64,000 nucleotides of DNA from an uncultured Lentisphaerota bacterium (GCA_900320225.1 ONRL01000003.1:48509-112508); one strand, 5' to 3'. Shown: positions 8,131 through 42,797, counted from the stretch's first letter. A program made the numbers and translations. The notes: generated from the sequence alone by a model not told the origin.

Positions 8131-8420
8131 TTCTACAGCCGCCAAGATGGCGGCTCCCCATACTTTGGGGCGGGGTGCCCCGTCAAACAGATGTGGCCGC
8201 CTCGGCCTTGCACCGCCGCAAGCAGCAAGGGCGAGGGCGCCCTTGCCACATCGCGCGGCGAAATTGGCGGTCGCCTCGGCGAGGCGACCCTACCATGCGG
8301 CCGCGACGGAGCACGGCCCTCCCAGTGCGGTCGCAACAAGTTGCGACCCGCTGGTGGTCTCATTCTCAGGTCTGCCCGCTTTCCACCTCGCCAACGGCGG
8401 ATCAGCGCGCGGGTGGCTTT
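8131..8420. repeat. array of short GC-rich hairpin modules (REP/BIME-like)
   Basis: At least six consecutive 7-9 bp stems, e.g. AGCCGCC/GGCGGCT, CAAGGGCG/CGCCCTTG, GGTCGCCTC/GAGGCGACC and GGTCGCAAC/GTTGCGACC. Confidence 0.7.
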
Positions 8421-11339: not shown

Positions 11340-11483
11340 AGGGGGCGGCGGCGGTCGCAACAAGTTGCGACCCTCCCGGCGCGAGGGGCGGCGCGCTCGG
11401 CGAGCGCGCACTACCATTCGGGGAAGCGGCAAGAGTGCCGCTTCACGGTCGCGCAGGCGCGCGACCCTCCCGGCGCGAGGGGC
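11340..11483. repeat. array of short GC-rich hairpin modules (REP/BIME-like)
   Basis: GGTCGCAAC-AAG-TTGCGACC-CTCCC, GGCGCGCTC/GAGCGCGC, GAAGCGGCA/TGCCGCTTC and GGTCGCGC-AGGC-GCGCGACC-CTCCC. Same module types as at 8131-8420 and as inside CDSs. Confidence 0.7.
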
Positions 11484-15070: not shown

Positions 15071-15108
15071 TTGTCCCACGGTCCCACGCCTTTCCTAAAA
15101 GTTACCCC

Positions 15109-15137: not shown

Positions 15138-15143
15138 AAGCCC

Positions 15144-16627: not shown

Positions 16628-16638
16628 TAAAACGAGAA

Positions 16639-17542: not shown

Positions 17543-17568
17543 ACCGCGGCAAGGCGCTGGCTCTCCGG

Positions 17569-17762: not shown

Positions 17763-17775
17763 GGGCCCTAAAATG

Positions 17776-17784
17776 TGGTATACT
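17776..17784 (+). promoter_or_regulatory. extended -10 promoter (TGgTATACT), 7 nt before fnlA ATG 17792
   Basis: The spacing implies a leaderless or near-leaderless mRNA. Confidence 0.5.
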
Positions 17785-17791
17785 ATAACCC

Positions 17792-21081: not shown

Positions 21082-21116
21082 CGCATTTGAGAAAACACGG
21101 CACTAAAGGAGAACAC

Positions 21117-23195
21117 ATGACGGAGAGAATCAAGTCGCTGCTCGACCGCACGTTCGCGAAGGAGCAGAAGAAGTTCCGGCGGGACCATGACTGGAAACCG
21201 CTGCTGGACACGTTCATCGCCGCGAAGGCCAATGACTCCGCGCGCGCCCGCATGGGGCTCGTCGCGATGCTCAAGGCGGAGCAGCCCGCGTTCATGGAGG
21301 GCGAGACGATCGCGTTCCTCCGCACCGTGAAGCAGATCCCCGACCTCCACTCCGACGAGGAGATGGCCGCGTTCCGCGCGGCCGGCACGGCGTTCGGCGA
21401 GAAGGGCGTGGTGTTCAACCTCACGGCCGACTTCGGCCCCACGATCCGCGACGGCCTGCTTGCGCGCATCTCCGAGATGGAGGCTCGCATCGCGCGTTGC
21501 CGCGCCGAGGGCGACGCGGAGGGCGTCACGTTCCTTTCCGACGCGATCCTCTCCACGACGGCCGTCCTCGAGCTCGCGGACCGCTACCGCGCCGCGGCGG
21601 CCGAGCAAGGCTTCACGAAGGTCGCCGAGACGCTCGCCCAGGTGCCCGCGCGCGGCGCGCGCACGTTCCACGAGGCGCTGCAGAGCCTGCGCATCCTCCA
21701 CTACGCGATGTGGTGCGAGGGCGAGTACCACTGCGGCCTCGGGCGCATCGACCAGTACCTCTATCCCTATCTCGAAGCCGACCTCGCGGCGGGGCGTCTC
21801 ACCGAGGAGACCGCCCTTGAGGAGCTCGAGGAGTTCTTCATCGCCTGCAACCGCGACAGCGACCTCTACATTGGCGTGCAGCAGGGCGACAACGGCCAGA
21901 GCGTCATGCTCGGCGGCGTCACGCGCGACGGCAAGCCCGCGTTCAACCTGCTCTCGCGTCTCGCGCTGAAGGCCTGCGGCGAGCTGAAACTCGTGGATCC
22001 CAAGATCAACCTGCGCGTGGACAAGTCCACGCCGATGGAGATCTACGAGCTCGGCACCGAGCTCACGAAGGCGGGCCTCGGTTTCCCGCAGTACGCGAAC
22101 GACGACGTGGTGATCCCCGCGCTCCAGAAGTGGGGCTACGAGCTCGAGGACGCGCGCGACTACTCTGTGGCCGCGTGCTGGGAGTTCCTTATCCCCGGCT
22201 GCGGCATGGACATCAACAACATCGACGCCGTCTCGCTGCCGTCGTGCCTCGACACCGTGATGCGCGGGGAGGGCCGCGCTCCCGCGCGGCCGGAAACCTT
22301 CGACGCGCTGAAGGAATCCCTCCGGGCGGAGATCAACCGCCGCTGCGACGCGCTCCAGGAGAAGTACAAGCATGTGGAGATCTTCCCGGGGCCGTTCGTC
22401 TCCGTAATTTCCACCGGTTGCATCGAGCGGGCGCGCGACCTCTCGAAGGGCGGCAAGTACAACAACTTCGGCATCCACGGCACGGGCATCGCCGTGGCGG
22501 TGGACTCCCTCGCGGCGGTGCGCGAGCTCGTCTTCGAGAAGAAGCTCGTGACGATGGAGGAGCTCGTGCACCTCATGGACACCGATTTCGAGGGCCGTCC
22601 CGACATCCTCGCCGCCGCGCGCCACGCGCCGAAGATGGGCAACGCGGACGCCGCGGCGGACGACATCGCCGTGTGGCTCGTCGCCACGTGGGCGGACGCG
22701 CTCAAGGGCCGCCGCAACGACCGCGGCGGCATCTACCGTCCGGGAACCGGCAGCGCGATGTACTACATCTGGCACGCGAACGAGCTGCCCGCGTCGGCGG
22801 ACGGCCGCCTGAAGGGCCATCCGTTCAGCGCGAACTACGCGCCGTCGCTCGACGTGCCCGTGAAGGGTCCGCTCAGCGTGATCCGTTCCTTCACCGAGCC
22901 CGACCTCGGGCCGGTCTGCAACGGCGGACCGCTCACGATCGAGGTGCACGACAGCGCCTTCCGCGAGCCGGACGGCGTAGAGAAGGTGGCGCAGCTCGTG
23001 AAGTTCTTCGTGGACCGCGGCGGACACCAGCTGCAGATCAACTCCATCAACCGCGAGACGCTCGTGGACGCCCAGGCGCATCCCGAGCGCCACGCGCACC
23101 TCATCGTGCGCGTGTGGGGCTGGAGCGGCTACTTCATCGAGCTCGACAAGCCGTTCCAGGACCAGATCATCAAACGCGTGGAACTGGCGGTCTAA
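21117..23195 (+). CDS. glycyl radical enzyme, PFL2/dehydratase-like family, substrate unknown
   Basis: C-terminal glycyl-radical-like motif LIVRVWGWSGYF, candidate Cys loop AACWEF (Cys-x-Glu), and a PFL2-like N-terminus. AAGGAG SD before ATG 21117. Confidence 0.7.
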   Translation: MTERIKSLLDRTFAKEQKKFRRDHDWKPLLDTFIAAKANDSARARMGLVAMLKAEQPAFMEGETIAFLRTVKQIPDLHSDEEMAAFRAAGTAFGEKGVVFNLTADFGPTIRDGLLARISEMEARIARCRAEGDAEGVTFLSDAILSTTAVLELADRYRAAAAEQGFTKVAETLAQVPARGARTFHEALQSLRILHYAMWCEGEYHCGLGRIDQYLYPYLEADLAAGRLTEETALEELEEFFIACNRDSDLYIGVQQGDNGQSVMLGGVTRDGKPAFNLLSRLALKACGELKLVDPKINLRVDKSTPMEIYELGTELTKAGLGFPQYANDDVVIPALQKWGYELEDARDYSVAACWEFLIPGCGMDINNIDAVSLPSCLDTVMRGEGRAPARPETFDALKESLRAEINRRCDALQEKYKHVEIFPGPFVSVISTGCIERARDLSKGGKYNNFGIHGTGIAVAVDSLAAVRELVFEKKLVTMEELVHLMDTDFEGRPDILAAARHAPKMGNADAAADDIAVWLVATWADALKGRRNDRGGIYRPGTGSAMYYIWHANELPASADGRLKGHPFSANYAPSLDVPVKGPLSVIRSFTEPDLGPVCNGGPLTIEVHDSAFREPDGVEKVAQLVKFFVDRGGHQLQINSINRETLVDAQAHPERHAHLIVRVWGWSGYFIELDKPFQDQIIKRVELAV

Positions 23196-25159: not shown

Positions 25160-25217
25160 CGGATGCCCCATGTCCGGTCTGCGGTGAAGCGTGGCTCTCC
25201 CGCACGGGTGGGATTTG

Positions 25218-25226
25218 TGATATACT
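25218..25226 (+). promoter_or_regulatory. extended -10 promoter (TGaTATACT), 6 nt before mlaE ATG 25233
   Basis: Same architecture as at 17776 and 46651. Confidence 0.5.
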
Positions 25227-25232
25227 ACGCGC

Positions 25233-26057
25233 ATGACCATCACCAGAGAGCCTCTGTATGAAGACGCGCCAGCGGGGCGTTTGGCCGCGCTGGGCCGGCA
25301 TGTGGTCGCGTGGTTCGCGAGCATCGGGCAGGCCGTGCGTCTGATGGCGGAGTCGTTCGGCTACCTGCCGGGCACGATTTTCCGCCGCCGCGGACGCGGC
25401 GAGTTCATGAAGCAGCTCTACTCCACGGGCATCCGCACCCTGCCCGTGATCACGGTGGTGGGCCTGTTCGCCGGAATGATCCTCGGCCTGCAGGTGGGCC
25501 TCGCCCTGCGTCGGTTCAACCAGGAGGTGTACCTCGGCGCGGCGGTGATGATTTCGCTCATCCGCGAGATGGGTCCGTTCGTGACGGGCATCTGCCTCTC
25601 GGCGTGCGTGGGCAGCGCGATGGCGGCCGAGCTCGGCACGATGACGGTGAACGACGAGGTGGCCGCTCTTGAGATCATGTCGATCCCGCCGGTCCGCTTC
25701 CTCGCGGCGCCGCGCATGGGCGGGCTTCTCGTGATGTCGCCCCTGCTTGCGTTCTACGCCTGCGTGCTCGGCGTGGTGGGCGGCGGCGTGGTGGGCTACA
25801 CGCAGTTCAACGTGTCGTTCAGCCAGTACATGTCGAGCGCGATGTCGATGGCGGAGCTGAAGGACCTCTTCGTGGGGCTCCTGAAGGCGACGGTGTTCGG
25901 CGTGGTGATCTGCACGGTCTCGTGTCATCAGGGCTTCACCACGCGGATGGGCGCGGTGGGCGTGGGACGCGCCACGCAGCGCAGCGTGATCATCTCCTTC
26001 CTGCTGATCCTCATGTTCGGCTACATGATCACGCGGATGTTCTATTTGGAGTTCTGA
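25233..26057 (+). CDS. mlaE: MlaE-family ABC transporter permease
   Basis: Multi-TM protein with MlaE-like segments (LPVITVVGLFAGMILGLQ..., AAELGTMTVNDEVAALEIMSI). No mlaF or mlaD adjacent. Confidence 0.75.
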   Translation: MTITREPLYEDAPAGRLAALGRHVVAWFASIGQAVRLMAESFGYLPGTIFRRRGRGEFMKQLYSTGIRTLPVITVVGLFAGMILGLQVGLALRRFNQEVYLGAAVMISLIREMGPFVTGICLSACVGSAMAAELGTMTVNDEVAALEIMSIPPVRFLAAPRMGGLLVMSPLLAFYACVLGVVGGGVVGYTQFNVSFSQYMSSAMSMAELKDLFVGLLKATVFGVVICTVSCHQGFTTRMGAVGVGRATQRSVIISFLLILMFGYMITRMFYLEF

Positions 26058-26071
26058 TCCGGAGAAAAAAC

Positions 26072-27816
26072 ATGATGAAGAAATTTGGCATTCTTTCCGT
26101 GGCGGCGTTGGCCGCGCTGGCGGCGGGGGCGATGGAGACGGTCGACCTGAACGGTCTCTGGGACTTCCGCTTCGAGCGCGGGAAGTCGCTGGAGGAGGTG
26201 GCGTTGCCGGCATTCGAGGCGAACGACAAGATGACCGTGCCCGGCTGCTGGAACGCCTACTCGCACTACTTCAACCAGCACGGCACGGGCTGCTACCGGC
26301 GCACGTTCGAGCTCGCCGAGGCGGCGGTCGACGCCTTCCTCGTGGTGGACGGCGTGGGCCTCCGCTCGCGCTTCTGGGTGGACGGACGCGAGATCGGCTT
26401 CAGCAAGCTGCCGTGGAGCAAGTTCGAGTTCCGCACGGGGCCGCTCGCGGCCGGACGCCACGAGCTCGTGGCCGCCGTCGACTCCGTGGTGGACAACAAG
26501 AAGGTGAAGCTCTTCTGGGACTTCTACGACTTCTACCCCTACGGCGGCTTCCACCACGGTGTGAAGCTCGACGTGCAGGTGAAGCCCGTGGAGCTGCGCC
26601 GCGTGGTGGTGCGCACGCGCGACTACAAGACGGGCCGCGTGGAGCTGGAGGCGCAGTTCGTCGGAAAAGATGCGCCGCAGGACTTCACGGCGTCCGTCGC
26701 GTTCGATGGCGGCGCGCCGCGCGAGGTCGCCTTCGCGAACCGGCGCGCGACGCTGAACGTGCCCGACTTCAAGCTCTGGAGCCACGACGCGCCGAACCTC
26801 CACATCGTTTCTGTTCGCGTACGAGGCACGAACCACGAAGCACGAAGCACGCGCTTCGGCATCCGTCAGGTGGGCACGGCGAAGGGGCGCATCACGCTCA
26901 ACGGACGCCCCGTCTACCTCAAGGGCGTGAACCGCCACGAGTCGCACTACGAGTTCGGCGTGTCCACGCCCGTGCAGCTCATGTACGAGGACGTGCGCAA
27001 CCTGAAGGACCTCGGCGGCAACTTCATCCGCGGTAGCCACTACGCGCAGTGCGAGGCGTTCCTCGACCTCTGCGACGAGCTGGGCGTGCTCGTGTGGGAG
27101 GAGTCCCTTGGCTGGGGCAACAAGGCGAAGCAGGCGACCTCCAGGAGGAGGAGACGCGCCTCATGGCGCGCAACTCGATCAACCACCCGTGCGTGATCGT
27201 GAGCGCGTTCCTGAACGAGCCGGACTCCGACACGAAGGCCTGCAAGGCGCTCGTCGACCGTCTCCTCGCCGCGCTCCGCGCCGAGGACACCGGCCATCTC
27301 GTGACCTTCGCGTGCCACCGCAACCTGAAGGACATCTGCCATGCGAACACGGACATCATCGCCTACAACACCTACCCCTGCTGGTACTCCTGGGAGATGG
27401 AGACCGGCTCCTCCGAGGAGATGCGCCGCAACATCCGCGCGTGCCACGAGGAGATCGTGGCCTACTTCCGCAACCGCTACAAGGACCGCTACAAGGACGA
27501 CCGCCCGATCATCGTGAGCGAGACGGGCGTGAAGGCCGACTACGGCGTGCGCGACCCGCGCGGCCGCGCGCAGTACACGGAGGACCACCAGGCCGAGTAC
27601 GAGCGCATCATGCTCGAGGAGATGTTCGCGATGAAGGACATCGCCGGCGTCGCCATCTGGCAGTTCACCGACTGCAAGACCTACACGCGCACGCGCGGCG
27701 CGCGCAACCGCTCGTACGGCGTGAACACGGGCGGGCTCTACGACCTCTACCGCCGTCCGAAGCTCGTCGTCGACGAGGTGCGGAGGCTCTTCACCGCCAA
27801 GAGCGAGAGCGACTGA
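26072..27816 (+). pseudogene. glycoside hydrolase family 2 (beta-glucuronidase/galactosidase-like), frameshifted
   Basis: Signal peptide plus GH2 N-terminus run in one frame to 27196. The continuation (NHPCVIVSAFLNE..., IVSETG) is in another frame from about 27136. Alignment to the paralog at 40929-42797 places the frame change between 27120 and 27136, with about 17 codons missing. Confidence 0.6.
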
Positions 27817-32772: not shown

Positions 32773-35700
32773 ATGAAACGGCTCTCGTTGGTCACGGCGC
32801 TCGCGGCCGCCGCCCTCGCGGGCACGGCCGCCGTGCGTCCGTATGAATTCGACTGGGCGAACCGCACGGCCGACGACCGGCCGGTGCTGCTGCCCCTCGT
32901 GGACGCGGCGGGCTGGACCGTCTCGGCCACGAACGCCGTCGCCACCTTCGCGCGCGCCGACGCGCACTGCCTCTTCGGCGACGCCGTGCCGCGTCTCGTC
33001 TACCGCGGTACGGGTCCGAGCCCGCGCATCACGCTGCGTCCGCCCGCGCCCGTGCCCGTGAAGGGGCCGGTCGACACGGTGAGCGTGTGGGTGTACGGCA
33101 ACAACGTCTCATACGCGCGCGATCCGAGCACGCCGCCCGTGCACATCGAGGCGCTGTTCACGGACGCCGACGGCAAGCCGTTCTCCGTTTCGCTCTACAC
33201 CGTGCACCACCTCGAATGGTTTCTCGTGCAGCGCCGTCTCACGCCTGACCAGGCGGCGCGCCTCGCGCGCGGCGGCGCGTTCACGGGGTTCACCGTCACG
33301 GGCGGCACGAACGAGAAGGACCGTTGGATCGAGCTGACGAGCCTCGCCGTCTACCGCGAGGAGCTGAAGCCCCTCGCGTTCAAGCCGCGCCCGAAACGCC
33401 CGAACCGCGTGTTCCCGGACTGTCCGCCCGGCGTGAACACGGGCGACGGCGAACTTTCCTTCCCCAACCGCGCGCTCACCGTGGTGCCGCCCGCGGGCGA
33501 GCCGGCTGTGCAGTGGCGTCTGCCCGCGCGGGCGGGACGCTGGGATGACCTTGCGCTCATCGGCGCGGACGGCGTGGCGCGCCCGATCGCGCGCGGCGGC
33601 GGCGTGTTTTTCGCCGATGAGCGGTCGCGCGGGAGCGCGACCCTCCCGGCTGGGGAGTCGTTCAGCGTCACGACGAACGCGGTTTCGCCGCTGGACGTTG
33701 TCTACGCGGGCGCGTTCACGGATGCGGCGGGGGGCGTGCTCTCCCGTGCGCGCCTGCGCTTCCACGAGGAAGGGCAGTCGCTCGTCCTCGACCTGCAGGC
33801 GGACGGCGGGCGCGTGGCGGAGGTGCGGTTCGGGTCGTTCACGGAGGACGACCTCCCCGAGGCGTGGCTCTTCACGGTGCCGTACTGGTCGTACAGCATG
33901 ACGGGCGCCGAGAACCGTCCGCACGTCGCGTGCTTCACGCTCGACGGCCGCACGCACTTCCTCTCCGCGTTCATGGACTGGACGCAGTCGAACGCGTCCG
34001 AGCCGTACTGCACGCCCTACCTGTTCGACGGGTCGATGAGCGTGCACGGCGGCGTGCGCTACCGCGCGAAGACGGACGGCGCGCGCAACCCGTGCTACGA
34101 GCGGTTCGTGTGGAGCGCGTCCCGCGAGTTCGCCGACGTGCTGCCGTCCATCCCCAACCCGCCCTCGCCGCACCGCGCGCTGACGGCGGAGTACGAGTGG
34201 TGCCACTGCTTCGCGGGGGACCGCGAGAAGGACAAGGCGTACTGGCGCGACCGCCGCCGGCGCGGCCTCGCGAAGGTGTTCATCGGCGACCACGAGGTGT
34301 GCATGCGCGACGGCAACGAGAGCTTCACGTTCCGCACGCGCACGGCGCCGAAGAAGGGCGGCGACGAGGGGACGCGCGACTTCACGCGCTACATGATCGA
34401 CACGCTTGGCTACCTCTACGGGCCCTACAACAACTACACCGACTTCGCCCCCGTCAACGGCCTCTGGCACGCCGACCGCATGACGCGCCAGCCGGACGGC
34501 AACCTGCTCCCCGCATGGAACCGCTGCTACGCGCCAAAGCCCACGTTCGCCGTGGAGGCGTGCGAGTGGATCGTGCCCGAGCTCCAGCGCAAGTTCAACT
34601 TCAACTCCGGCTACTGCGACGTGCATACGTGCGTTTCGCCTTGGAGCCGTTGCGACTACGACGCGCGCGTGCCGGGCGCGGGCACGTTCGCCGGCACGTT
34701 CTACGCGTACGGCGAGCTGCTCGGGATGCAGCGGAAGTTCTGGACGGGTCCCGTCTACTCCGAGGGTGGCGTGCACTTCATGTACTGCGGCCTCGACGAC
34801 GGCAACTTCGCGCAGGACCAGGGCGCGCGGCTCGACGTCAACCCCTGGCTCGTCGACTTCGACCTCCTGCGGATGCATCCCCTCGCCAACAACTTCGGCA
34901 TGGGGTACCCGCGCATGTTCTACGGACGCGACGCCGTGCCGAAGGACCATGCGCTCTACATGGACCGTTTCCTCGCCGCGACGATCGCCTTCGGCCACGT
35001 GGGCTACTTCTTCACGGGCAAGCCCGACGAGGAGGAGCAGGGCTACTGGATGGTGCAGCCCCTCGCCGCGCGCTACGCGAAGGCGAACGCGGAGGAGATC
35101 CGCTACGCGGCCTTCTGCGGCAAGTTCGTGGACACGACCGACGCGCTCCTCTCCGGCGAATACCGCCGCTCGCAGGTGGCCGTGCGCTACGACGACGGCA
35201 CGCGCGTGGTCGTGAACGGCAGCCCGGACGGCGAGTGGCTGGTGCTGCCGCAGGCGGCCGCAAACCTCGCCGTTCCGCCGAACGGCTGGTTCGCGCTCTC
35301 CGGCGACGGGCAGGTCGCCTCCATCAGCGCGTTCCGCGCCGGCGGACGCGCGGACGCCTGCGCCGCGCCGGAATCCTTCTACATGGACGGCCGCGGCACG
35401 TGGTTCGACAGCGGCCGCGGCGCGACGGACGGCCGCCTCATCCGCCTCTTCGCCCCGGGAGGGTCGCGCTCCTGCGCGACCGAGACGGCTCCCCATACGG
35501 GAGGGTCGCGCTCCTGCGCGACCGAAGAAATCTTCATCCGCCATGCGAAGGAGGTCGAGCTGCCCTATGCGGCCGTTTCCGTGACGCGCCTTGACGCGGC
35601 GGGCGCGGAAATCGGCCCCGCCTCGTTCGCCGTCACGAACGGCCGCACGCGCCTCGTCGCCGACAAGGCCGCGTACTCGTACCGCGCCGTGAAGCCGGCG

Positions 35701-36279
35701 GGCTGGACGGAGCCGCCCGCCGCCGCGCTCGCGCAGGCATTCACGTTGCCGAAGGACTGGACGCCGCCGCCCGTTGCGAAACCAGCGCGTGCATTCACCT
35801 TGCCGTCTAACTTCGCGGCGGGCATGGCGCTGCGCGGGAAGGGCGAGGTGCCGCTGGACACCGCGACGGGCGCGAACGTACACCGCGCCACCGCCGTGGT
35901 GGGTGGCGTCGCGAAAGATGGCTACTACATGCACCCGCCGTACAAGCGCGGCACCGGCTACACGTTCATGCGCTGGCGTCTCAACCTGCCGGAGAAGCCG
36001 CTCACGTTCCACGCCTCCATCGGGAAGATCGACCGCAGTTCCACAGGCGACGGCACGCTCTACCGCGTCGTGGTGGAGGACGCGGCGGGCGTGCGCCATG
36101 TGGTCGCCGAGAAGCAGACGTGCGAGCACAGGTGGCAGGATCTCGTGGCGGACCTCTCGCCGTGGAAGGGCCAACGCGTGAAGTTCATGCTCGTTTCGGA
36201 CCCGGGCCCCGCCAACAACAACTACGGAGACCACTCGTCCTGGTGCGACCTCCGCTTCGACTGTATTGAAAACCAGTGA
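32773..36279 (+). CDS. large secreted protein, function unknown (possible glycan-active enzyme)
   Basis: Signal peptide MKRLSLVTALAAAALAGTAA and an uninterrupted 1168 codons. Contains in-frame palindromic modules at 33623-33647 and 35457-35522. Confidence 0.5.
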   Translation: MKRLSLVTALAAAALAGTAAVRPYEFDWANRTADDRPVLLPLVDAAGWTVSATNAVATFARADAHCLFGDAVPRLVYRGTGPSPRITLRPPAPVPVKGPVDTVSVWVYGNNVSYARDPSTPPVHIEALFTDADGKPFSVSLYTVHHLEWFLVQRRLTPDQAARLARGGAFTGFTVTGGTNEKDRWIELTSLAVYREELKPLAFKPRPKRPNRVFPDCPPGVNTGDGELSFPNRALTVVPPAGEPAVQWRLPARAGRWDDLALIGADGVARPIARGGGVFFADERSRGSATLPAGESFSVTTNAVSPLDVVYAGAFTDAAGGVLSRARLRFHEEGQSLVLDLQADGGRVAEVRFGSFTEDDLPEAWLFTVPYWSYSMTGAENRPHVACFTLDGRTHFLSAFMDWTQSNASEPYCTPYLFDGSMSVHGGVRYRAKTDGARNPCYERFVWSASREFADVLPSIPNPPSPHRALTAEYEWCHCFAGDREKDKAYWRDRRRRGLAKVFIGDHEVCMRDGNESFTFRTRTAPKKGGDEGTRDFTRYMIDTLGYLYGPYNNYTDFAPVNGLWHADRMTRQPDGNLLPAWNRCYAPKPTFAVEACEWIVPELQRKFNFNSGYCDVHTCVSPWSRCDYDARVPGAGTFAGTFYAYGELLGMQRKFWTGPVYSEGGVHFMYCGLDDGNFAQDQGARLDVNPWLVDFDLLRMHPLANNFGMGYPRMFYGRDAVPKDHALYMDRFLAATIAFGHVGYFFTGKPDEEEQGYWMVQPLAARYAKANAEEIRYAAFCGKFVDTTDALLSGEYRRSQVAVRYDDGTRVVVNGSPDGEWLVLPQAAANLAVPPNGWFALSGDGQVASISAFRAGGRADACAAPESFYMDGRGTWFDSGRGATDGRLIRLFAPGGSRSCATETAPHTGGSRSCATEEIFIRHAKEVELPYAAVSVTRLDAAGAEIGPASFAVTNGRTRLVADKAAYSYRAVKPAGWTEPPAAALAQAFTLPKDWTPPPVAKPARAFTLPSNFAAGMALRGKGEVPLDTATGANVHRATAVVGGVAKDGYYMHPPYKRGTGYTFMRWRLNLPEKPLTFHASIGKIDRSSTGDGTLYRVVVEDAAGVRHVVAEKQTCEHRWQDLVADLSPWKGQRVKFMLVSDPGPANNNYGDHSSWCDLRFDCIENQ
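33623..33647. repeat. GGTCGCGC..GCGCGACC-CTCCC palindromic module inside CDS
   Basis: GGTCGCGCGGGAGCGCGACCCTCCC, in frame within ORF 32773-36279. Confidence 0.6.
35457..35522. repeat. two direct copies of palindromic module GGGAGGGTCGCGCTCCTGCGCGACC inside CDS
   Basis: Copies at 35457-35481 and 35498-35522 with spacer GAGACGGCTCCCCATAC. Encodes GGSRSCATETAPHTGGSRSCAT; the reading frame is preserved. Confidence 0.8.
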
Positions 36280-36298
36280 CCCTGATTCGTTCGATTTT

Positions 36299-36385
36299 AG
36301 CCACAAAGAGACACAAAGAAACACAAAAGGTCAAATAAGCAAAAAGAATTATCTAATCTTTGTGGTCTTTGTGTTCTTTGTGGCT
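36299..36385. repeat. CACAAAG-word long hairpin after gene 32773-36279
   Basis: AGCCACAAAGAGACACAAAGAAACACAAAAG - AT-rich loop - CTTTGTGGTCTTTGTGTTCTTTGTGGCT. Confidence 0.75.
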
Positions 36386-36412
36386 AAAAAGAGCACCCAC
36401 TCATCGAGGAAA

Positions 36413-37552
36413 ATGGAGAGAGTAATGGAAGAGGGATTGATTCGCAATACCCCTGACTTGAAGGAGGCCTGCGACGCGCTCGTTGCGGGCGGCGTGGCCG
36501 CGCTCGACACGGAGTTCGTCTGGCGCGCTTCCTTCCGTCCGCACCTCGCCATCGTGCAGATGGCCGGCGCGGACGGCGTGTGCCGCGCGCTCGACTGCCA
36601 GCTCGGCACCGATCCGGCACCGTTCGCGGCGGTGCTGTCGAACCCTTCGGTGGTGAAGATCCTCCATGCCGCGCATCAGGACCTGGAGCTCCTGTACCAC
36701 TACACCGCGGCCTCGCCCGTGAACGTGTTCGACACGCAGCTCGCGGCGGGGTTCTGCGGCCATCCGGCGAACATCGGCCTGCAGAAGCTCCTCTACGAGG
36801 TGCTGGACGTGGGGCTGCCGAAGACGGAGACGTGCACGGACTGGAGCCAGCGTCCGCTCACGGACGCGCAGGTGCGCTACGCGCTCGACGACGTGCGCTA
36901 CCTCGTGGCGCTCCGCACCGCCCTGCTCGCGCAGTGCGATTCCTTCGGCACGCGCGAATGGCTGGAGGAGGACTTGCTGAAATTCGAAGCGCCCGAGGCG
37001 TATGGCGAGATGGAGCCTGACGAGGCGTGGAAACGCGTCAAAAACGCCTCGCGGTATCTGCGTCCATTCGGCCTCGCGGGCCTGCGCGCGGTCGCGGCGT
37101 TGCGTGAGGTGCGTGCGCGCGAGTGGAACCTGCCGCGCGCGTGGTTGGGCGAGGACGGTTCGCTCATTGCCCTTGCGGAACGCCTGCAACGCGGCGAGAC
37201 GTCCTTCCCGAACGTGCGTTTTCGTCACCGTCTGAAGAACAATGCCCAGCGCGACCGTTTGGCGGCGGACTATGCCGCGGCCCTGACGGAGGCGGCGCGT
37301 CTGCCGGAAGAGGAATGGCCGCTGCCCGTACAGCCGGATTATCCCTCCGAGGTGCGCGACGCGGCGGACAAGGCGCACGACTATCTCGTCGCGCGCGGCG
37401 AGGAATTGCACGTCGATCCCGCGCTCTTCGCGAACCGCGCGCAGCTTCTCGCGTTCGTGGACGATCCCGAGGTGGAGGACAACCCGCTTGCGGAGGGCTG
37501 GCGTTTCGAGGTGGCCGGACGCACGATCATCGAACGCTTCTACGTGCCATGA
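36413..37552 (+). CDS. rnd: ribonuclease D (DEDD 3'-5' exonuclease plus HRDC)
   Basis: ALDTEF (ExoI), ILHAAHQDLELL (ExoII) and YALDDVRYL (ExoIII) motifs. The start was chosen after hairpin 36299-36385, with a GAGGA SD. Confidence 0.8.
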   Translation: MERVMEEGLIRNTPDLKEACDALVAGGVAALDTEFVWRASFRPHLAIVQMAGADGVCRALDCQLGTDPAPFAAVLSNPSVVKILHAAHQDLELLYHYTAASPVNVFDTQLAAGFCGHPANIGLQKLLYEVLDVGLPKTETCTDWSQRPLTDAQVRYALDDVRYLVALRTALLAQCDSFGTREWLEEDLLKFEAPEAYGEMEPDEAWKRVKNASRYLRPFGLAGLRAVAALREVRAREWNLPRAWLGEDGSLIALAERLQRGETSFPNVRFRHRLKNNAQRDRLAADYAAALTEAARLPEEEWPLPVQPDYPSEVRDAADKAHDYLVARGEELHVDPALFANRAQLLAFVDDPEVEDNPLAEGWRFEVAGRTIIERFYVP

Positions 37553-38919
37553 CTGAACAAACGAGAAAGGCGTTCCTGCGCGGGCAGCGGCGGATGCTGG
37601 TGATGACGATCATCGGCTACACGCTGTTCTATTTCTTGCGCAAGAACCTGTCGCTCGCCATGCCGGGGCTCGCGCAGGACTACGGCATCACCAAGACCAC
37701 GCTCGGCATCTTCCTCACGCTGCATGGCGTGGTGTACGGTTTGGGAAAGTTCGTGTGCGGGCCGCTTTCGGACAGGAGCCGTCCGCGCTGGTTTCTGATG
37801 GGCGGCCTCGCGCTCGCGACGCTGGCGAACGTGATGTTCGGGTTCGGGCCGGTTCTCGCCGCGCTTGTCTCCGGCGGCGCGGATGGCGCGGCGTTCACGA
37901 CGACGCTCGTGACGGTGCTGGGAATCGCGTGGGTCGCGAACGGCCTCTGCCAGGCGACGGGCAATCCGCCGTGCCTCAAGTTGCTCTCCCACTGGGTGCC
38001 GCCGAACGAGCTGGCCACGAAACTCGCCATCTGGAATTCGTCGCACTCCATCGGCGCGGGAATCATCACGATCCTCTGCGGCTACATCATGGGGCTGGGC
38101 GCTCTCGGGGCCGATGGCGTGGGCATAGGGATGTGGAAGTGGTGCTTCTGGGCGCCGGCGATTATTGCGGCGGTGGGATTGGTGGCGCTGTGGGTGTGGC
38201 TGCCGGGCACGCCGGAGGAGGAGGGGATGGGAGGGTCGCGCTCCTGCGCGACCGCCGCCGAGACGGCGGCTCCCCATGCGGACGCGCAGCAGCGCGTTCC
38301 TCCCGCCGACACCGCCCTGCGGCGCGTGTACCTGAACCCGGTGATCTGGATGGTGGGGCTTTGTTGTTTCATGGTTTATCTCACGCGTTTCGCGATTCTC
38401 GACTGGGGGCCGATGCTCATGAAGGAGGCGAAGGGCGTGTCCCTTGCGGGCGCGGGCTGGACAGTGGCCTGCTTTGAGGTTGCCGGAATCCTCGGCACGC
38501 TTTTCTCTGGCTGGGCGACGGATCGCCTGGCAGGCGGCCGCGCGCCGCGCGTGTGTCTCTTCATGATGCTCGGCGCGGCGGCTTTCATGGGAGCGTTCTG
38601 GCTGATTCCTGCGGGGAGCTCCGCGATCCTCTACGTCGCGGCGTTGTCGGGCGCGGGGTTCTGCATCTACGGTCCGCAGGCCATGACCGGCACGACGGCC
38701 GTCAACATCGCGACTCGCCGCTTTGCGGGGACGGCCGTGGGATTCACGTCGCTCTTCTCTTACGGGAGCGTCCTCTTCAGCGGATGGGGCATGGGTTTTC
38801 TCGCGGAGCGGACGGGCGGCTGGGCCGTGCCTTTCCTTTCCGTTGTCGTGGCAACGGTTGTGGGCGCGGGGCTGTTCGCGCTCTTATGGAAAACAAAACC
38901 GAACGGATACGATGTATGA
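37549..38919 (+). CDS. MFS organophosphate:phosphate antiporter (GlpT/UhpC family)
   Basis: N-terminus FYFLRKNLSLAMP...GKFVCGPLSDR is typical of GlpT/UhpC, with 12 TM-like segments. ATGA overlap with the rnd stop. The central loop carries a palindromic insert at 38229-38304. Confidence 0.75.
   Translation: MTEQTRKAFLRGQRRMLVMTIIGYTLFYFLRKNLSLAMPGLAQDYGITKTTLGIFLTLHGVVYGLGKFVCGPLSDRSRPRWFLMGGLALATLANVMFGFGPVLAALVSGGADGAAFTTTLVTVLGIAWVANGLCQATGNPPCLKLLSHWVPPNELATKLAIWNSSHSIGAGIITILCGYIMGLGALGADGVGIGMWKWCFWAPAIIAAVGLVALWVWLPGTPEEEGMGGSRSCATAAETAAPHADAQQRVPPADTALRRVYLNPVIWMVGLCCFMVYLTRFAILDWGPMLMKEAKGVSLAGAGWTVACFEVAGILGTLFSGWATDRLAGGRAPRVCLFMMLGAAAFMGAFWLIPAGSSAILYVAALSGAGFCIYGPQAMTGTTAVNIATRRFAGTAVGFTSLFSYGSVLFSGWGMGFLAERTGGWAVPFLSVVVATVVGAGLFALLWKTKPNGYDV
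38229..38304. repeat. palindromic module pair inside the MFS transporter central loop
   Basis: GGGAGGGTCGCGCTCCTGCGCGACC ... GGCGGCTCCCCAT GCGGACGCGCAGCAGCGCGTTCCTCCC. Encodes GGSRSCATAAETAAPHADAQQRVPP. Confidence 0.8.
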
Positions 38920-38956
38920 TTGATACTACCAACAACCACCTAAAAGGAATCTGCAA

Positions 38957-39829
38957 ATGAAATACGGAATCTACTACGCCTACTGGGAGGACCAGTGGAA
39001 GGCCGACTACTTCACGTACATCGAGAAGGTCGCGAAGCTCGGCTTCGACTTCCTCGAGATCGCCTGCACGCCGATCAACGGCTACAGTCGGCAGGTTCTT
39101 AAGGATCTCCGTCAGGCGGCGAAGGACAACGGCATCTTCCTCACGGCGGGGCACGGTCCGAGTGCCGACCAGAACCTCGCTTCGCCCGACGCGGCGGTGC
39201 GCCGCAACGCGAAGAAGTTCTTCACGAAGCTACTGAAGAACTTGGAAGTTCTCGGCATCCATTCGATTGGCGGCGGTATCTACAGCTACTGGCCGGTGGA
39301 CTACTCGAAGCCCATCGACAAGCCGGGCGACTGGGCGCGCGCCGTCAAGGGCGTGCGCGAGGTCGGCAAGGTGGCGCAGGACTGCGGCGTGGACTACTGC
39401 CTTGAGGTGCTGAATCGCTTCGAGGGCTACTTGCTCAACACGGCGGCGGAGGGCGTGAAGTTCGTGAAGGAGGTGGACGTGCCGTCCGTGAAGGTGATGC
39501 TCGACACGTTCCACATGAACATCGAGGAGGACTCCATCGGCGGCGCGATCCGCTCGACGAAAGGGCTTCTCGGACACTTCCACACGGGCGAGTGCAACCG
39601 CCGCGTGCCGGGGCGCGGACGCACCCCGTGGCACGAGATCGCCTGCGCGCTCAAGGACATCCGCTACAACGGGACTGTCTGCATGGAACCGTTCGTGCGC
39701 ATGGGCGGCAAGGTGGGCGAGGACATCAAGATCTGGCGCGAGCTGGAGCCGGGGATCACGGAGGCGAAGATGGACGCCGACGCGAAGGCCGCGCTCGACT
39801 TCGAGCGGATCGTGTTCGAGGGAGTTTGA
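38957..39829 (+). CDS. D-psicose (D-allulose)/D-tagatose 3-epimerase
   Basis: Strong colinear similarity to Agrobacterium D-psicose 3-epimerase as recalled: MK.GIYY.YWE...YIEKVAKLGFD..E...LEVLNRFE..LNTAAEGV.FVK.V....VKVMLDTFHMNIEEDS.G.AIR....LLGHFHTGE.NRRVPG.GR.PWHEI. Confidence 0.85.
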   Translation: MKYGIYYAYWEDQWKADYFTYIEKVAKLGFDFLEIACTPINGYSRQVLKDLRQAAKDNGIFLTAGHGPSADQNLASPDAAVRRNAKKFFTKLLKNLEVLGIHSIGGGIYSYWPVDYSKPIDKPGDWARAVKGVREVGKVAQDCGVDYCLEVLNRFEGYLLNTAAEGVKFVKEVDVPSVKVMLDTFHMNIEEDSIGGAIRSTKGLLGHFHTGECNRRVPGRGRTPWHEIACALKDIRYNGTVCMEPFVRMGGKVGEDIKIWRELEPGITEAKMDADAKAALDFERIVFEGV

Positions 39830-39905
39830 TGGTTTGATAGTTTGATGGTTTGATGGTTTGATAGTTTGAAAGGTTTGAGAGTTTGAAGGCTTGTTTAGAT
39901 TGTTT
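39824..39905 (+). repeat. GTTTGAT-word tract spanning the epimerase stop and the DUF89 start
   Basis: GTTTGATGGTTTGATAGTTTGATGGTTTGATGGTTTGATAGTTTGAAAGGTTTGAGAGTTTGAAGGCTTGTTTAGATTGTTTG. Confidence 0.8.
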
Positions 39906-40914
39906 GCCGTGCCTCGCGCGGAACGCGACGGAGCTGGCGCGCCGGTCGGCGCGCGGCGACGCGGCGCTGGAAGGGCGCATCGCAGCCGAGGGGATGCGCA
40001 TCCTCGGGCGCGCGGCGGAGGAGGGCTACACGCTCCCGCCGCCGTGCTACGCGCGCCAGCTCATCGACAACGCGCTTGCGATGTGCGACGGCGCGGTACC
40101 CGATCCGTGGGCGGAGGAGAAGAGGAAGTCCACGGAGCTGGCGCTGAAGCTGGTGGAGAGGATGGGATTGTTCACAAATGACAATTGCCACAATTGTTCA
40201 CCAATCGCAAATATAAATCTCAGTACGGGAGGGACGCGCTCCTGCGCGTCCGTTGCGGTCGCGCAGGAGCGCGACCCTCCCGACATGTCCGAATTCGAGA
40301 AGCGGCTGCGGCTTGCCATCGCCGGGAACATCCTCGACTTCTCCATCTACGCCGACCTCGACATCGCGGCCGCGATGGAGACGATGAAGGAGGCGTTCAC
40401 GAAGCCGATTTGCGGCACTCTTGCCGCTTCATCCGCTGACGCGCAGGAGCGCGTCCCTCCCAGTGACATTGTCGTCGAGCTGAAACGGCGCATGGACGCG
40501 GCGAAGTCGATTCTGTGGATCTTCGACAACTGCGGCGAGGCGGTGTTCGACCGTCTGCTGATCGAGCCGTACCGCGAGAAGATCACGCTTGCCGTACGCG
40601 GCAAGCCCGCGTTCAACGACCTTACACGCGCCGAACTTGCCGAAAGCGGCTATCCTGAGGGATTCGCCGCAGGAGGCGTCGTCTCAAATGACGATGGCGT
40701 GCCGGGGGTGGTGGACGCCACGTGCGGCGATGCGTTCCGCGCGGCATTCTCGCGGGCGGATCTGATTGTCGCGAAGGGGCAGGCGAACTTCGAGACGATG
40801 AGCGATCGTACGGACAAGCCGATTGCGTTCCTCTTCCTCGCCAAGTGCCCCGTCGTATGCCGCGAAGTGGGCGCGCACCCCCAGACGATTCAAGTCATTC
40901 TCCGTAATTTCTGA
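39883..40914 (+). CDS. DUF89/ARMT1-like damage-control phosphatase family protein
   Basis: N-terminal CLDCLPCLARNA and C-terminal KGQANFETMSD motifs of DUF89. TTG start lies inside the GTTTGAT word repeat. Two in-frame repeat insertions are present (about 40170-40281 and 40412-40461). Confidence 0.6.
   Translation: MKACLDCLPCLARNATELARRSARGDAALEGRIAAEGMRILGRAAEEGYTLPPPCYARQLIDNALAMCDGAVPDPWAEEKRKSTELALKLVERMGLFTNDNCHNCSPIANINLSTGGTRSCASVAVAQERDPPDMSEFEKRLRLAIAGNILDFSIYADLDIAAAMETMKEAFTKPICGTLAASSADAQERVPPSDIVVELKRRMDAAKSILWIFDNCGEAVFDRLLIEPYREKITLAVRGKPAFNDLTRAELAESGYPEGFAAGGVVSNDDGVPGVVDATCGDAFRAAFSRADLIVAKGQANFETMSDRTDKPIAFLFLAKCPVVCREVGAHPQTIQVILRNF
40227..40281. repeat. inverted pair of palindromic modules inside the DUF89 CDS
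   Basis: GGGAGGGACGCGCTCCTGCGCGTCC-GTTGC-GGTCGCGCAGGAGCGCGACCCTCCC. The two halves are near-perfect reverse complements. Confidence 0.8.
40412..40461. repeat. second repeat insertion in the DUF89 CDS
   Basis: GCGGCACTCTTGCCGCTTC is the reverse complement of the intergenic GAAGCGGCAAGAGTGCCGC module. It is followed by GACGCGCAGGAGCGCGTCCCTCCC. Confidence 0.75.
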
Positions 40915-40928
40915 AAGGACATAAAAAG

Positions 40929-42797
40929 ATGAACATGAAGCAGATGATTGTTGCGGCCGCTGCAGGTGTCGTATGTGGCGCCATGGCGCTTGATCTCAAC
41001 GGGACGTGGGAGTTCCGCTTCGACGAGGGGCGCGCCGTCACGGCGGTCGCCGGGCCGGCGTTCGAGCCGACCGGACGAATGGTCGTGCCGGGGTGCTTCG
41101 ACGCGATGCCCGAAACGTTCATGAAGCGCGGCACCGCGATGTATCGGCGCACGTTCACACTCGAGAAGGGCGTGGACAACGCGTGGCTCGTCATCGACGG
41201 CATGGGCCTTTATGGGAAGTTCTGGGTGGACGGACGCGCAATCGGCATCGACGACCTCCCGTACAGCCGTGTGGAGCTCGCGACGGGTCCGCTCGCGGCG
41301 GGCGCGCACACGCTCGTCGCCGCCGTCGACAACCGCTTCGACTGGAGTTACCAGAAGCTTGCGCAGTCATTCTACGACTTCCACTTCTGGGGCGGGTTCT
41401 ACCACGGCGTGTCGCTCGTCTTCGACAACCGTAAGCTGTTCGTGCGCACGCGCGACTACAAGACGGGCACGGTGGAGATCGAGGCGGTCAACTTCCAGAA
41501 TCGCGACTTTGACGCGACGCTCGTTTTTGACGGTAAGAGCGAGGTGAAGGCGACCTTCAAGAACGGCCGCGCCACGGTGAAGGTGCCAAACTTCAAGCTC
41601 TGGTCGCCGGACGCGCCCAACCTGCACACCGTCTCGCTGGGAGGGTCGCGCTCCCGCGCGACCGTAGCGGACGCGCAGGAGCGCGTCCCTCCCCATGCGG
41701 ACGCGCAGGAGCGCGTCCCTCCCCATGCGGACGCGCAGGAGCGCGTCCCTCCCCATGCGGACGCGCAGGAGCGCGTCCCTCCCGTCGTGGCGCGCTTCGG
41801 CATCCGCACGATCGAAGCGCGCAACGGCGGGTTCTACCTCAACGGGGCGCGCATCTTCCTCAAGGGCGCGAACCGGCACGACCAGCAGATGCAGCTCGGC
41901 GCATCCACGCCGGAGGGCTTCATGCTCACCGACATCCAGAACCTGAAGAGGATGGGCGGCAACTTCTTCCGCGGCGCGCACTATCCGCAAGCGCAGCGTT
42001 TCCTCGACCTCTGCGACGAGATGGGCGTCTTGGTGTGGGAGGAGTCGCTCGGCTGGGGCAACGGGCAGCGCTACACGCAGAGCGGCAAGCAGAACGACCT
42101 CGTGGATCCGGGGTTCGTCGCCAAGCAGCTCGAGCAGACGAAGCTCATGGTGCGCAACAGCTTCAACCACCCCTCGGTGATCATCTTCGCGTTCCTCAAC
42201 GAGTGCGACTCCACGAAGCCGGAGTGCAAGACGCTCGTCGACCAGCTGATCGAGACGATCCGCGAGGAGGACTCCGGCCGGCTCGTCTCGTTCGCCTGCA
42301 ACCGCACGCGCGGCGACCTCTGCCACGCGAACACCGACTTCGTGGCGTTCAACACCTACCCCGGCACGATCAACGGCTACCCGGGAACGCATGACGAGCT
42401 CAAGCAGAAGATCCACGACATGGAGGGCTACGGCGTGGACTGGCTGGCGAAGTACCTGGGCGAGCGCTATCCCGGCAAGACGCTCTTCATCTCCGAGATG
42501 GGCGGTGCGGGGCAGTACGGTAGCCGCGACCCGTCGTGTCCCGTCGACACCGAGGATTTCCAGGCCGAGCACAACGCGCTTGTGGCGGAGGCGGCCTGGG
42601 GCAATCCGGCCATCGCCGGCATCGCGTTCTGGCAGTTCTTCGACACGCGCACGTGCGGACGTGAGTGCCTGAACAACGGGAAGAAGCACCAGGCGACGAG
42701 TTGGGCGGGGCAGTTCAGCGCGGACCGCAAGCCAAAGCTCGCCGTGGGCGTGTTGACGGACTGGTTCACGAACCACGTCCCGGCGAACCTGCGCTAG
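40929..42797 (+). CDS. glycoside hydrolase family 2, paralog of 26072-27816, with in-frame repeat insertion
   Basis: GH2 layout (LNGTWEFRFDEG..., NHPSVIIFAFLNE acid/base, ISEMGG nucleophile region). Carries a 145-nt palindromic/tandem insert at 41639-41783. Confidence 0.8.
   Translation: MNMKQMIVAAAAGVVCGAMALDLNGTWEFRFDEGRAVTAVAGPAFEPTGRMVVPGCFDAMPETFMKRGTAMYRRTFTLEKGVDNAWLVIDGMGLYGKFWVDGRAIGIDDLPYSRVELATGPLAAGAHTLVAAVDNRFDWSYQKLAQSFYDFHFWGGFYHGVSLVFDNRKLFVRTRDYKTGTVEIEAVNFQNRDFDATLVFDGKSEVKATFKNGRATVKVPNFKLWSPDAPNLHTVSLGGSRSRATVADAQERVPPHADAQERVPPHADAQERVPPHADAQERVPPVVARFGIRTIEARNGGFYLNGARIFLKGANRHDQQMQLGASTPEGFMLTDIQNLKRMGGNFFRGAHYPQAQRFLDLCDEMGVLVWEESLGWGNGQRYTQSGKQNDLVDPGFVAKQLEQTKLMVRNSFNHPSVIIFAFLNECDSTKPECKTLVDQLIETIREEDSGRLVSFACNRTRGDLCHANTDFVAFNTYPGTINGYPGTHDELKQKIHDMEGYGVDWLAKYLGERYPGKTLFISEMGGAGQYGSRDPSCPVDTEDFQAEHNALVAEAAWGNPAIAGIAFWQFFDTRTCGRECLNNGKKHQATSWAGQFSADRKPKLAVGVLTDWFTNHVPANLR
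41639..41783. repeat. palindromic module plus 30-bp tandem array (3.9 copies) inside the GH2 CDS
   Basis: GGGAGGGTCGCGCTCCCGCGCGACC, then GCGGACGCGCAGGAGCGCGTCCCTCCCCAT at 41667, 41697, 41727 and 41757 (last copy partial). Encodes HADAQERVPP repeats. Confidence 0.9.

Follow-up and report, generated by a model that had tools for sequence, protein, structure and literature searches.

In-frame REP/REPIN-type repeats with a GGAG tag in genes of a Kiritimatiellae-like bacterium

In-frame intragenic REPs with GTAG or CGTC tags were catalogued by Di Nocera et al. 2013 (BMC Genomics 14:522; PMC3733652). They are most abundant in the PVC bacterium Opitutus terrae and in R. conorii, and they include dimers encoding 20–30 aa and genes that are hit twice. 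The same study equated RPE-4 and RPE-6 of R. conorii with CGTC-tagged REPs and accepted GYAG, GYRG, GTRG, GTMG and GTGG as degenerate GTAG tags (PMC3733652). These tagged REPs with intragenic copies, especially the O. terrae families GTAG-17 to GTAG-20, are the known system closest to the repeats described here. Here we analyse a 64-kb stretch of DNA (the window) from a Kiritimatiellae-like bacterium, in which short hairpin modules occur within protein-coding genes.

A tagged hairpin module and its copies in the window

The 20-mer core of the module, GGWCGCGCAGGAGCGCGWCC, has 14 matches with up to two mismatches in the 64-kb window (Table 1), far above the 0.01 expected from 100 dinucleotide shuffles. 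The matches coincide with the positions given in a first-pass annotation of this DNA, and thirteen of them lie within four ORFs; all four host frames are open and the peptides GGSRSCAT and ADAQERVPP are correct, as that annotation had it. It missed a variant copy in a fifth gene, which encodes a glycyl-radical enzyme.

In each module, a perfect 8-bp GC-rich stem with a 4-nt loop follows an unpaired GGGAGG(G) tag; the fold energy is -16 kcal/mol per unit. The tag is invariant and lies outside the stem, and the combination of GGAG tag, 8-bp stem and 4-nt loop was present in 195 of 357 tag-plus-hairpin matches. The collection scan, which permitted all four W/W combinations at the variable stem position (W..W), gave 59 T..A, 58 A..T and 1 A..A among the matches listed. 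The stem variants keep pairing and show strict compensatory variation. Codons read off the module contained no stop in any of the six frames, so that an open frame requires only that the added length be divisible by three. All forward genic copies read GG(S/T)RSCA(T/S) and most reverse genic copies read DAQERVPP; frame use within genes is strongly biased.

The first-pass annotation also placed the same module in the intergenic arrays. This holds for the tag-plus-hairpin architecture but not for the stems, which are mostly others (GGTCGCAACAAGTTGCGACC, GAAGCGGCAAGAGTGCCGCTTC and AGCCGCCAAGATGGCGGCT, for example, plus GTAG-tagged variants); positions 11447–11470 form the sole near-exact copy of the genic family in the two arrays. 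GTAG-tagged hairpins are located at 8269 and 11391, and the array at 8137..8348 lies downstream of an intrinsic-terminator-like hairpin. An Rfam scan of the whole window at the gathering threshold returned no match, and a literature search on Kiritimatiellae repeats found no paper on the present repeat family.

Table 1 Module copies, arrays, host genes and intragenic inserts in the window.
Feature	Position	Strand	Description
20-mer core matches, first seven	11447, 33623, 35462, 35504, 38234, 38280, 40232		
20-mer core matches, last seven	40257, 40437, 41644, 41669, 41699, 41729, 41759		
Intergenic array	8137..8348	.	Tag-plus-hairpin modules, other stems
Intergenic array	11353..11470	-	Four hairpin modules
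Extra intragenic module, glycyl-radical enzyme gene	22266..22291	+	Stem variant GGCCGCGC; read GEGRAPARP
Host gene 1	32773..36279	+	1168-aa protein, no Pfam match
Single REP module in 1168-aa gene	33621..33648	-	Hairpin GGTCGCGCGGGAGCGCGACC then CTCCC; read SRGSATLP
Two direct REP modules in 1168-aa gene	35456..35523	+	GGGAGGGTCGCGCTCCTGCGCGACC, 42 nt apart
Host gene 2	37552..38919	+	MFS transporter (MFS_1)
Three-module cluster, MFS central loop	38228..38304	.	Components given in the text
Host gene 3	39883..40914	+	ARMT1-like/DUF89 protein
AT-rich 64-nt segment in DUF89 gene	40162..40225	+	Directly 5' of site-1 doublet
DUF89 site 1, inverted doublet	40226..40281	.	REPIN-like, tags outward, 5-nt spacer; read GGTRSCASVAVAQERDPP
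DUF89 site 2	40412..40461	-	Small hairpin GCGGCACTCTTGCCGC plus one reverse REP module; read ICGTLAASSADAQERVPP
Host gene 4	40929..42797	+	GH2 glycoside hydrolase
GH2 insert	41638..41783	.	Forward module 41638-41663; four reverse modules 41667-41783

Insertions in loops and linkers of host proteins

Comparison with orthologues shows that the genic segments are insertions, as every host gene examined has orthologues that are insert-free or differently filled. At the single-module point of the 1168-aa gene, SRQVATLP or an insert of two modules is found in close orthologues, and no insert in more distant ones. The spacer between the two direct modules of the same gene is the remnant GAGACGGCTCCCCATAC and the segment is read as GGSRSCATETAPHTGGSRSCAT; orthologues at 92–96% identity have one to four modules with different stems at this site, which is empty (…DADG-TEE…) in orthologues at about 60% identity. 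Among the orthologues at 92–96% identity, internal indels occur only at the two module sites. In relatives, a 1002-aa gene separates the MFS gene from the isomerase gene; it was checked as a paralogue of the 1168-aa protein, which it is not.

The MFS gene probably starts at an ATG near 37612. Its insert, located between predicted transmembrane segments, has three components: a GGAG module in forward orientation, a hairpin (GCCGCCGAGACGGCGGC) tailed by CTCCCCAT, and a reverse module that is degenerate. The module array in this central loop is different in every syntenic orthologue. The site-1 doublet of the DUF89 gene has a fold energy of -55 kcal/mol; the site is empty in two orthologues (L088 and L091), and a third (L090) has a different 63-nt doublet there. 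In the DUF89 model, residues 98–133 are placed between two helices, with pLDDT values <50; the model has a mean pLDDT of 61, which is moderate, and was used solely to call the site-1 insert unstructured. The AT-rich segment beside this doublet is also missing from the insert-free orthologues (292–300 aa), and no second copy of it was found in any DNA retrieved for comparison. At site 2 the insert-free orthologues read FTKPVDTAAVAELK, and in other orthologues different modules fill the same two sites.

The GH2 insert spans 48 residues, compared with 11 in PDB 6ncw, and lies in the linker before the TIM barrel. Its reverse modules form a perfect 30-nt tandem. The site is empty in L090 (HTVASDGVVARF), holds a doublet only in L089, and holds the doublet plus three extra identical 30-nt units in the window. 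The inserts map to loops or linkers of the host proteins, as seen in the MFS loop, the GH2 linker and the unstructured DUF89 site 1, in line with the first-pass annotation. The dN/dS values of the host genes, 0.13–0.23 overall (0.17 against L090 for the 1168-aa gene, 0.18 for MFS, 0.19–0.23 for DUF89 and 0.13–0.15 for GH2), indicate purifying selection.

The perfectly identical GH2 tandem units fit replication slippage, and the near-identical orthologues with different modules at the same site, together with the strong frame bias inside genes, would also agree with a spread of the modules by homologous recombination, gene conversion or slippage, with no dedicated transposase at present and with hairpins kept because they are useful. 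Suggested uses are terminators, mRNA stabilisers, or binding sites for proteins or uptake signals, as DUS/USS are; a comparable frame bias inside genes is known for the uptake sequences of Haemophilus. However, neither slippage nor conversion can seed new, unrelated sites, such as those in the GH2 linker and at DUF89 site 1, where sister genomes have no insert.

Alignment to insert-free orthologues, as the first-pass annotation had proposed, revealed the insertions but left unclean junctions: no target site or target-site duplication was definable between the closest empty and filled alleles (GH2 and DUF89 site 1), because the 12 nt beside the insert also differ, and the same holds for a cleavage point. 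A rival reading takes the modules for MITE-like offshoots of an insertion sequence of the DDE type bearing terminal inverted repeats, which would make them true RPE or Correia analogues instead of REP/RAYT elements. The inverted doublets do resemble a very small MITE, and in-frame insertion is known from RPEs. Nevertheless, the units are only 25–30 nt long and are also found singly, no duplication is visible at the empty/filled junctions, and the sole gene found bracketed by modules encodes a REP-associated tyrosine transposase (RAYT), a Y1/HUH enzyme of the IS200/IS605 superfamily. We regard this candidate as highly improbable.

Spread in related DNA and association with a RAYT gene

The collection scan identified at least 87 loci with the exact 25-mer of the module. 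Identical copies recur in genes that are unrelated to each other, between genes, and across many independent ENA, JGI and NCBI assemblies, and the 25-mer is common to MAGs labelled as several phyla, the labels being the depositors' own; short contigs with the 25-mer that bear the labels Muribaculaceae or Clostridia were probably assigned to the wrong bin. The segments could alternatively be native, fast-evolving low-complexity linkers or assembly artefacts, and the loops concerned do vary in length in distant homologues too. The identity of the 25-mer across genes and independent assemblies, the existence of insert-free orthologues and the covariation that preserves the hairpin contradict this reading, to which we assign a negligible probability.

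Modules are present alone, as inverted doublets or in tandem arrays of about 30 nt, with 45 tags-outward inverted, 16 heads-facing and 58 tandem pairs counted, and a tag-plus-hairpin search gave 321 matches compared with 59 in reversed-sequence controls. The same loci also contain GTAG-tagged hairpins built in the same way, GTAGGGCGCGACGTCCCGTCGCGCC with 12 copies being one example. The genic-to-intergenic comparison envisaged in the first-pass annotation yielded 26 in-frame genic and 80 non-genic module clusters in the 87 listed loci plus the window; given that 52% of random positions were called genic by our home-made, codon-usage-based gene caller, which is crude and was applied only to this like-for-like comparison, the family is preferentially extragenic. 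The window is unlike the related loci in that 13 of its 14 near-exact copies are genic.

A phmmer search with E. coli RayT detected no RAYT within the 64-kb window. In five related contigs (L043, L094, L095, L096 and L022), copies of the exact module flank a RAYT gene; the copies are inverted around it in L043, L094/L095 and L096, and the RAYT copy in L022 is decayed. The L043 protein matched E. coli RayT (phmmer E = 5.5e-13), passed the NCBIfam equivalog REP_Tyr_transpos (91.3 bits, cut-off 80) and scored 25.1 against Pfam Y1_Tnp (cut-off 23). A metagenome scan covered 80 loci that encode a homologue of this RAYT: 50 have a GGAG-tagged perfect hairpin ≤250 nt from the gene and 37 have one on both sides, and GTAG- or CGTC-tagged hairpins were found beside the gene in none of the 80.

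Spread by recombination without a transposase would also suit the decayed RAYT in L022 and the same exact 25-mer in MAGs labelled by their depositors as several phyla. The module-flanked, inverted arrangement of RAYT genes in four contigs and the GGAG-tagged hairpins at 50 of 80 RAYT loci argue against it, and we consider it unlikely. Instead, the modules are very probably REP/REPIN-type repeats of a family with a cognate RAYT as its putative mobiliser, in which tolerated in-frame copies persist. To our knowledge, the demonstration of RAYT-driven REP mobility is limited to cleavage and rejoining by the E. coli enzyme in vitro. The RAYT would recognise the hairpin on single-stranded DNA, cut beside the tag and copy or move the unit in trans. 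Existing units may be preferred landing or recombination sites, so that clusters would grow, shrink and swap modules, and we infer that the RAYT mobilises the units and that landing beside existing ones explains the clustering. Gene conversion between copies, or their recombination, could equally account for module replacement at a fixed site, with no transposase. Because the module is stop-free, copies in tolerant surface loops or linkers whose length is divisible by three would survive as extra peptide, and selection may favour frames giving small, hydrophilic or turn-forming peptides (GGSRSCAT, DAQERVPP). The earlier suggestion of selfish palindromes colonising ORFs in frame is supported by the insert-free orthologues, the purifying selection on the host genes, the loop and linker positions and the module-flanked RAYT genes of relatives.

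A further reading would have one GGAG-tagged REP-RAYT lineage moved horizontally between phyla (Kiritimatiellota, Lentisphaerota, Verrucomicrobiota and Hydrogenedentota by the depositors' labels), with the in-frame clusters acting as rapidly changing, loop-diversifying peptide cassettes. If this rather improbable reading were true, the clusters would make the exposed loops of transporters and of proteins that degrade glycans differ from strain to strain, and would be a source of protein variation, not tolerated junk.

Comparison with known systems

Classic RPE-1 elements are 100–150 nt long, and we know of no transposase for them. The present modules resemble RPEs as palindromic repeats that lie in frame in functional genes and add peptide segments, but the RPE-like element type assumed in the first-pass annotation does not apply: the units are of REP/REPIN type and 25–30 nt long, with an identified cognate RAYT clade. 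An RPE-1-type element, that is, one long palindrome of 100–150 nt, was rejected, the longest array (146 nt) being a doublet plus tandem 30-nt units. With DUS/USS, motifs recognised in competence without a transposase, the sole shared point is the frame bias inside genes, and the RAYT genes flanked by modules argue against that reading.

The GGAG family accounts for odd peptides (GGSRSCAT, ADAQERVPP and others) in proteins predicted for Kiritimatiellae, Lentisphaerae and related MAGs, and connects them with a defined RAYT clade whose tag is GGAG. REP/REPIN biology is usually seen as confined to extragenic DNA and to single lineages; this family provides many natural cases of in-frame insertion and shows frame filtering, along with gain, loss and replacement of modules at fixed coding sites between strains. 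It should be useful for the study of protein insertion tolerance and of REP cluster growth.

The features shared with REP/REPIN-RAYT systems are short GC-rich stem-loops with an unpaired tag, compensatory stems, many mostly extragenic copies, a flanked cognate RAYT in related contigs, and filled and empty sites between close relatives that suggest mobility. As in the REPIN-RAYT systems typified by E. coli RayT/YafM, there are inverted REP doublets and a REP-flanked RAYT gene (Bertels and Rainey 2011, PMC3116915). Unlike REPINs, described as extragenic and largely lineage-specific (PMC3116915), about a quarter of the clusters here are in-frame genic, and the exact 25-mer is shared by MAGs that their depositors labelled as different phyla.

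In-frame intragenic REPs were catalogued in 2013, most abundantly in another bacterium of the same superphylum (PMC3733652), so that the novelty first claimed for the in-frame behaviour was overstated and this is not a new kind of system. The modules agree with GTAG/CGTC REPs in being 20–40-nt palindromes with an unpaired tag at one end, 6–9-bp stems and complementary stem variants, in occurring as singles, head-to-head or tail-to-tail dimers and clusters, and in being mostly intergenic, with some in-frame singles or dimers encoding roughly 8–30 aa and some genes hit twice; a PVC host and association with a RAYT gene are shared with the O. terrae REPs. In contrast, the tag here is GGAG (GGGAGGG), outside the listed GTAG variants and a string absent from the main text of PMC3733652, the stem sequences and encoded peptides differ, and the repeats are hosted by Kiritimatiellae-like and other MAGs. 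New features are the GGAG tag, the distribution over MAGs labelled by their depositors as several phyla, and the rapid strain-to-strain turnover of modules documented at fixed coding sites.

Architecture and placement of the tagged hairpin modules

Each module has a 4-nt loop closed by an 8-bp stem (GG[A/T]CGCGC), outside which lies the unpaired tag GGGAGG(G); the reverse-complement form ends in CCCTCCC. A search of the whole window for the core GGWCGCGCAGGAGCGCGWCC, with ≤2 mismatches permitted, returned 14 matches against 0.01 expected from dinucleotide shuffles, and the module coordinates given in the first-pass annotation all proved correct on reading the sequence. When W was accepted at both variable stem positions, the matches listed comprised 59 T..A, 58 A..T and one A..A combination, indicating that the base pair is kept. 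Read codon by codon, all six frames of the module are free of stops, so the reading frame stays open provided only that the length of an insert is divisible by three. Units stand alone or in pairs, of which 45 are inverted with their tags outward, 16 are heads-facing and 58 are in tandem; a tag-plus-hairpin search gave 321 matches compared to 59 in reversed-sequence controls. GTAG-tagged hairpins of like layout were found alongside the GGAG modules in the same loci.

The window has four module host ORFs and one further intragenic copy, which uses another frame (read as GEGRAPARP) and whose surrounding loop gave a gapped alignment to PDB 1r8w. The intergenic arrays at 8137–8348 and 11353–11470, previously described as the same module type, do share the tag-plus-hairpin architecture of the genic modules, but their stems are mostly different, and only 11447–11470 is a near-exact copy. 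This end of the window (1–17800) has further features: a GC content of 50–53% over the first 17 kb compared to ~65% elsewhere, a 144-nt unit repeated five times (7987, 9416, 11529, 13557 and 14928), an 83-nt unit repeated three times (7936, 9363 and 11479) with a terminator-like hairpin at its end, and simple-repeat runs of the GGACAAAGGACAGAGGAC type (9566, 16508–16790 and 17563–17771).

Positions of module host genes and associated elements in the window
Feature	Position	Remark
Extra intragenic module GGGGAGGGCCGCGCTCCCGCGCGGCC	22266–22291	inside glycyl-radical enzyme gene 20877–23195
1168-aa protein, no Pfam family	32773–36279	module host ORF
MFS transporter	37552–38919	module host ORF
ARMT1/DUF89 protein	39883–40914	module host ORF
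AT-rich 64-nt segment	40162–40225	in DUF89 reading frame, directly 5' of REP doublet
GH2 hydrolase	40929–42797	module host ORF

Exact copies of the 25-mer GGGAGGGWCGCGCTCCTGCGCGWCC are present in over 87 genome-collection stretches, from MAGs labelled as Kiritimatiellae, Lentisphaeria/Victivallales, Verrucomicrobiota and Hydrogenedentota, and from a few with other, possibly wrong, labels. In the related loci and the window, a simple codon-usage test placed 26 clusters in frame within genes and 80 outside genes; as this test classes 52% of random positions as genic, the family favours extragenic positions, and an appreciable minority of its clusters lies in frame. Few frames are in use among the genic copies: all forward copies encode GG(S/T)RSCA(T/S), and most reverse copies encode DAQERVPP, with SRRSATLP or GRAGARPSR in a few. 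This usage may reflect a filter favouring small, hydrophilic or turn-forming peptides.

Insertion sites in the host genes

The modules have been inserted into functional genes. Comparison of the window with its relatives gave dN/dS values of 0.13–0.23 for all four host genes, which contradict the possibility, raised in the first-pass annotation, that these are pseudogenes, and the orthologue alignment proposed there yielded insert-free forms of the DUF89, GH2 and 1168-aa proteins. The original observation of palindromic modules lying in frame within ORFs is confirmed, and its reading as colonisation by selfish elements is supported by these orthologues, the dN/dS values and the link to a transposase.

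A homologue search with the DUF89 protein found 1608 sequences. The aligned orthologues (294–366 aa) vary in length at only two sites, at which insert-free forms read …LDEIPGWDPNSFE… (site 1) and …FTKPVDTAAVAELK… (site 2), and the window and other orthologues carry differing modules at identical positions. At the DNA level, site 1 is empty in two syntenic relatives (L088 and L091), contains a 63-nt doublet in a third (L090), and in the window holds a doublet together with the AT-rich segment. The latter has an inverted repeat (ACAATTG…CAATTGT) and a TATAAAT box and is missing from insert-free DUF89 orthologues; the fetched DNA contained no further copies. Site 1 is unstructured (pLDDT < 50) and lies between two helices in a moderate-quality model of the protein.

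The syntenic GH2 orthologue in L090 is insert-free and reads HTVASDGVVARF, that in L089 has the doublet (SLGGSRSRATAADAQERVPP), and that in the window adds to the doublet three further perfect 30-nt units, which look like slippage products. The insert, of 48 residues compared to 11 in PDB 6ncw, is located between the β-sandwich and the TIM barrel. A GH2 paralogue in the window (~25200–27200) is without a REP insert; its equivalent loop has a small tandem repeat of its own, CACGAAGCACGAAGCACG. No target site was definable at GH2 or at DUF89 site 1, because the sequence adjacent to the insert also differs from the empty alleles.

Eleven orthologues of the 1168-aa protein, 92–96% identical, exhibit no indels apart from those at the C-terminus and at the two sites occupied by modules, and orthologues at ~60% identity are without the insert. 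Among the eleven, the number of modules at site 2 ranges from one to four and their stems vary, the encoded peptides being GGSRSCAT, GGSQLAAT, AAKMAAPH or SAAGTAAPH, and in L090 the alternative peptides are encoded by hairpin modules of the families that form the window's intergenic arrays. The MFS insert lies mid-protein, flanked by predicted transmembrane segments, and the array in this loop differs in every syntenic orthologue. Other hairpin families, such as GGGACAACGGGCGTCTCGCCCGTTG and GAAGCGGCAAGAGTGCCGCTTC, occupy the loop in L088 (5250–5410) and L090 (5339–5470), so several repeat families, not the GGAG family alone, invade coding loops there. Relatives L088–L092 additionally have, between the MFS and AP_endonuc_2 genes, a 1002-aa gene of no Pfam family that is missing from the window (38919–38957) and, on comparison, unrelated to the 1168-aa host protein.

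Association with a RAYT transposase clade

When E. coli RayT, a REP-associated tyrosine transposase (RAYT), was used as the query against every ORF in the fetched loci, there were two matches. The ORF in L043 scored 91.3 bits on NCBIfam REP_Tyr_transpos (cut-off 80), exceeded the Pfam Y1_Tnp cut-off, and is flanked by modules 5' (GGGAGGGTCGCGCTCCTGCGCGACC) and 3' (GGTCGCGCGGGAGCGCGACCCTCCC). The second, in a Lentisphaeraceae MAG (L022, 3064–3690), is a RAYT in a decayed state: it has a frameshift of 1 nt, an in-frame REP cluster inside and further clusters on its flanks. This gene is apparently in decay, its own repeats having invaded it. The same module likewise brackets RAYT homologues 57–69% identical, in L094/L095 and L096. 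When aligned members of this RAYT clade were used to scan metagenomes, 80 loci were returned, 50 of which have a GGAG-tagged perfect hairpin ≤250 nt from the RAYT gene (37 on both sides); a GTAG- or CGTC-tagged hairpin beside the gene was found in none of the 80. The stems vary among these loci, and the GG…CC stem ends and CTCC tail are constant. Modules bracketing a RAYT gene are the defining arrangement of REP–RAYT systems, and the modules described here belong to the REP/REPIN–RAYT type.

The evidence demonstrates hairpin units that bear a conserved tag, cluster and are polymorphic for insertion, together with a cognate RAYT clade. By analogy with IS200/IS605-type HUH enzymes and the E. coli RAYT, the transposase would bind the hairpin on single-stranded DNA, cut beside the tag and join the unit elsewhere. 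Units already in place might then draw in others or undergo recombination; this would account for the same loops carrying different modules in sister strains.

Comparison with known REP families

Two REP superfamilies, GTAG and CGTC, have been distinguished by tag (Di Nocera et al. 2013, PMC3733652). The same study lists in-frame intragenic REPs, which are commonest in the PVC bacterium Opitutus terrae and in R. conorii, where the palindromic elements RPE-4 and RPE-6 belong to the CGTC-tagged REPs. Dimers or groups encoding 20–30 aa make up over half of these intragenic inserts, and some genes have two hits; the supplementary list mentions O. terrae ~70 times, with peptides other than those found here. 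Since this catalogue includes O. terrae, the behaviour was already described in the same superphylum, and the earlier suggestion that in-frame colonisation was undescribed for a family of this kind is overstated. It is improbable that a single REP–RAYT lineage has spread horizontally between phyla with its in-frame clusters acting as loop-diversifying cassettes. In contrast to the catalogued REPs, the present family carries a GGAG tag, has a RAYT clade of its own, resides in other hosts, has an exact 25-mer common to MAGs labelled as several phyla, and exhibits documented strain-level turnover within coding loops.
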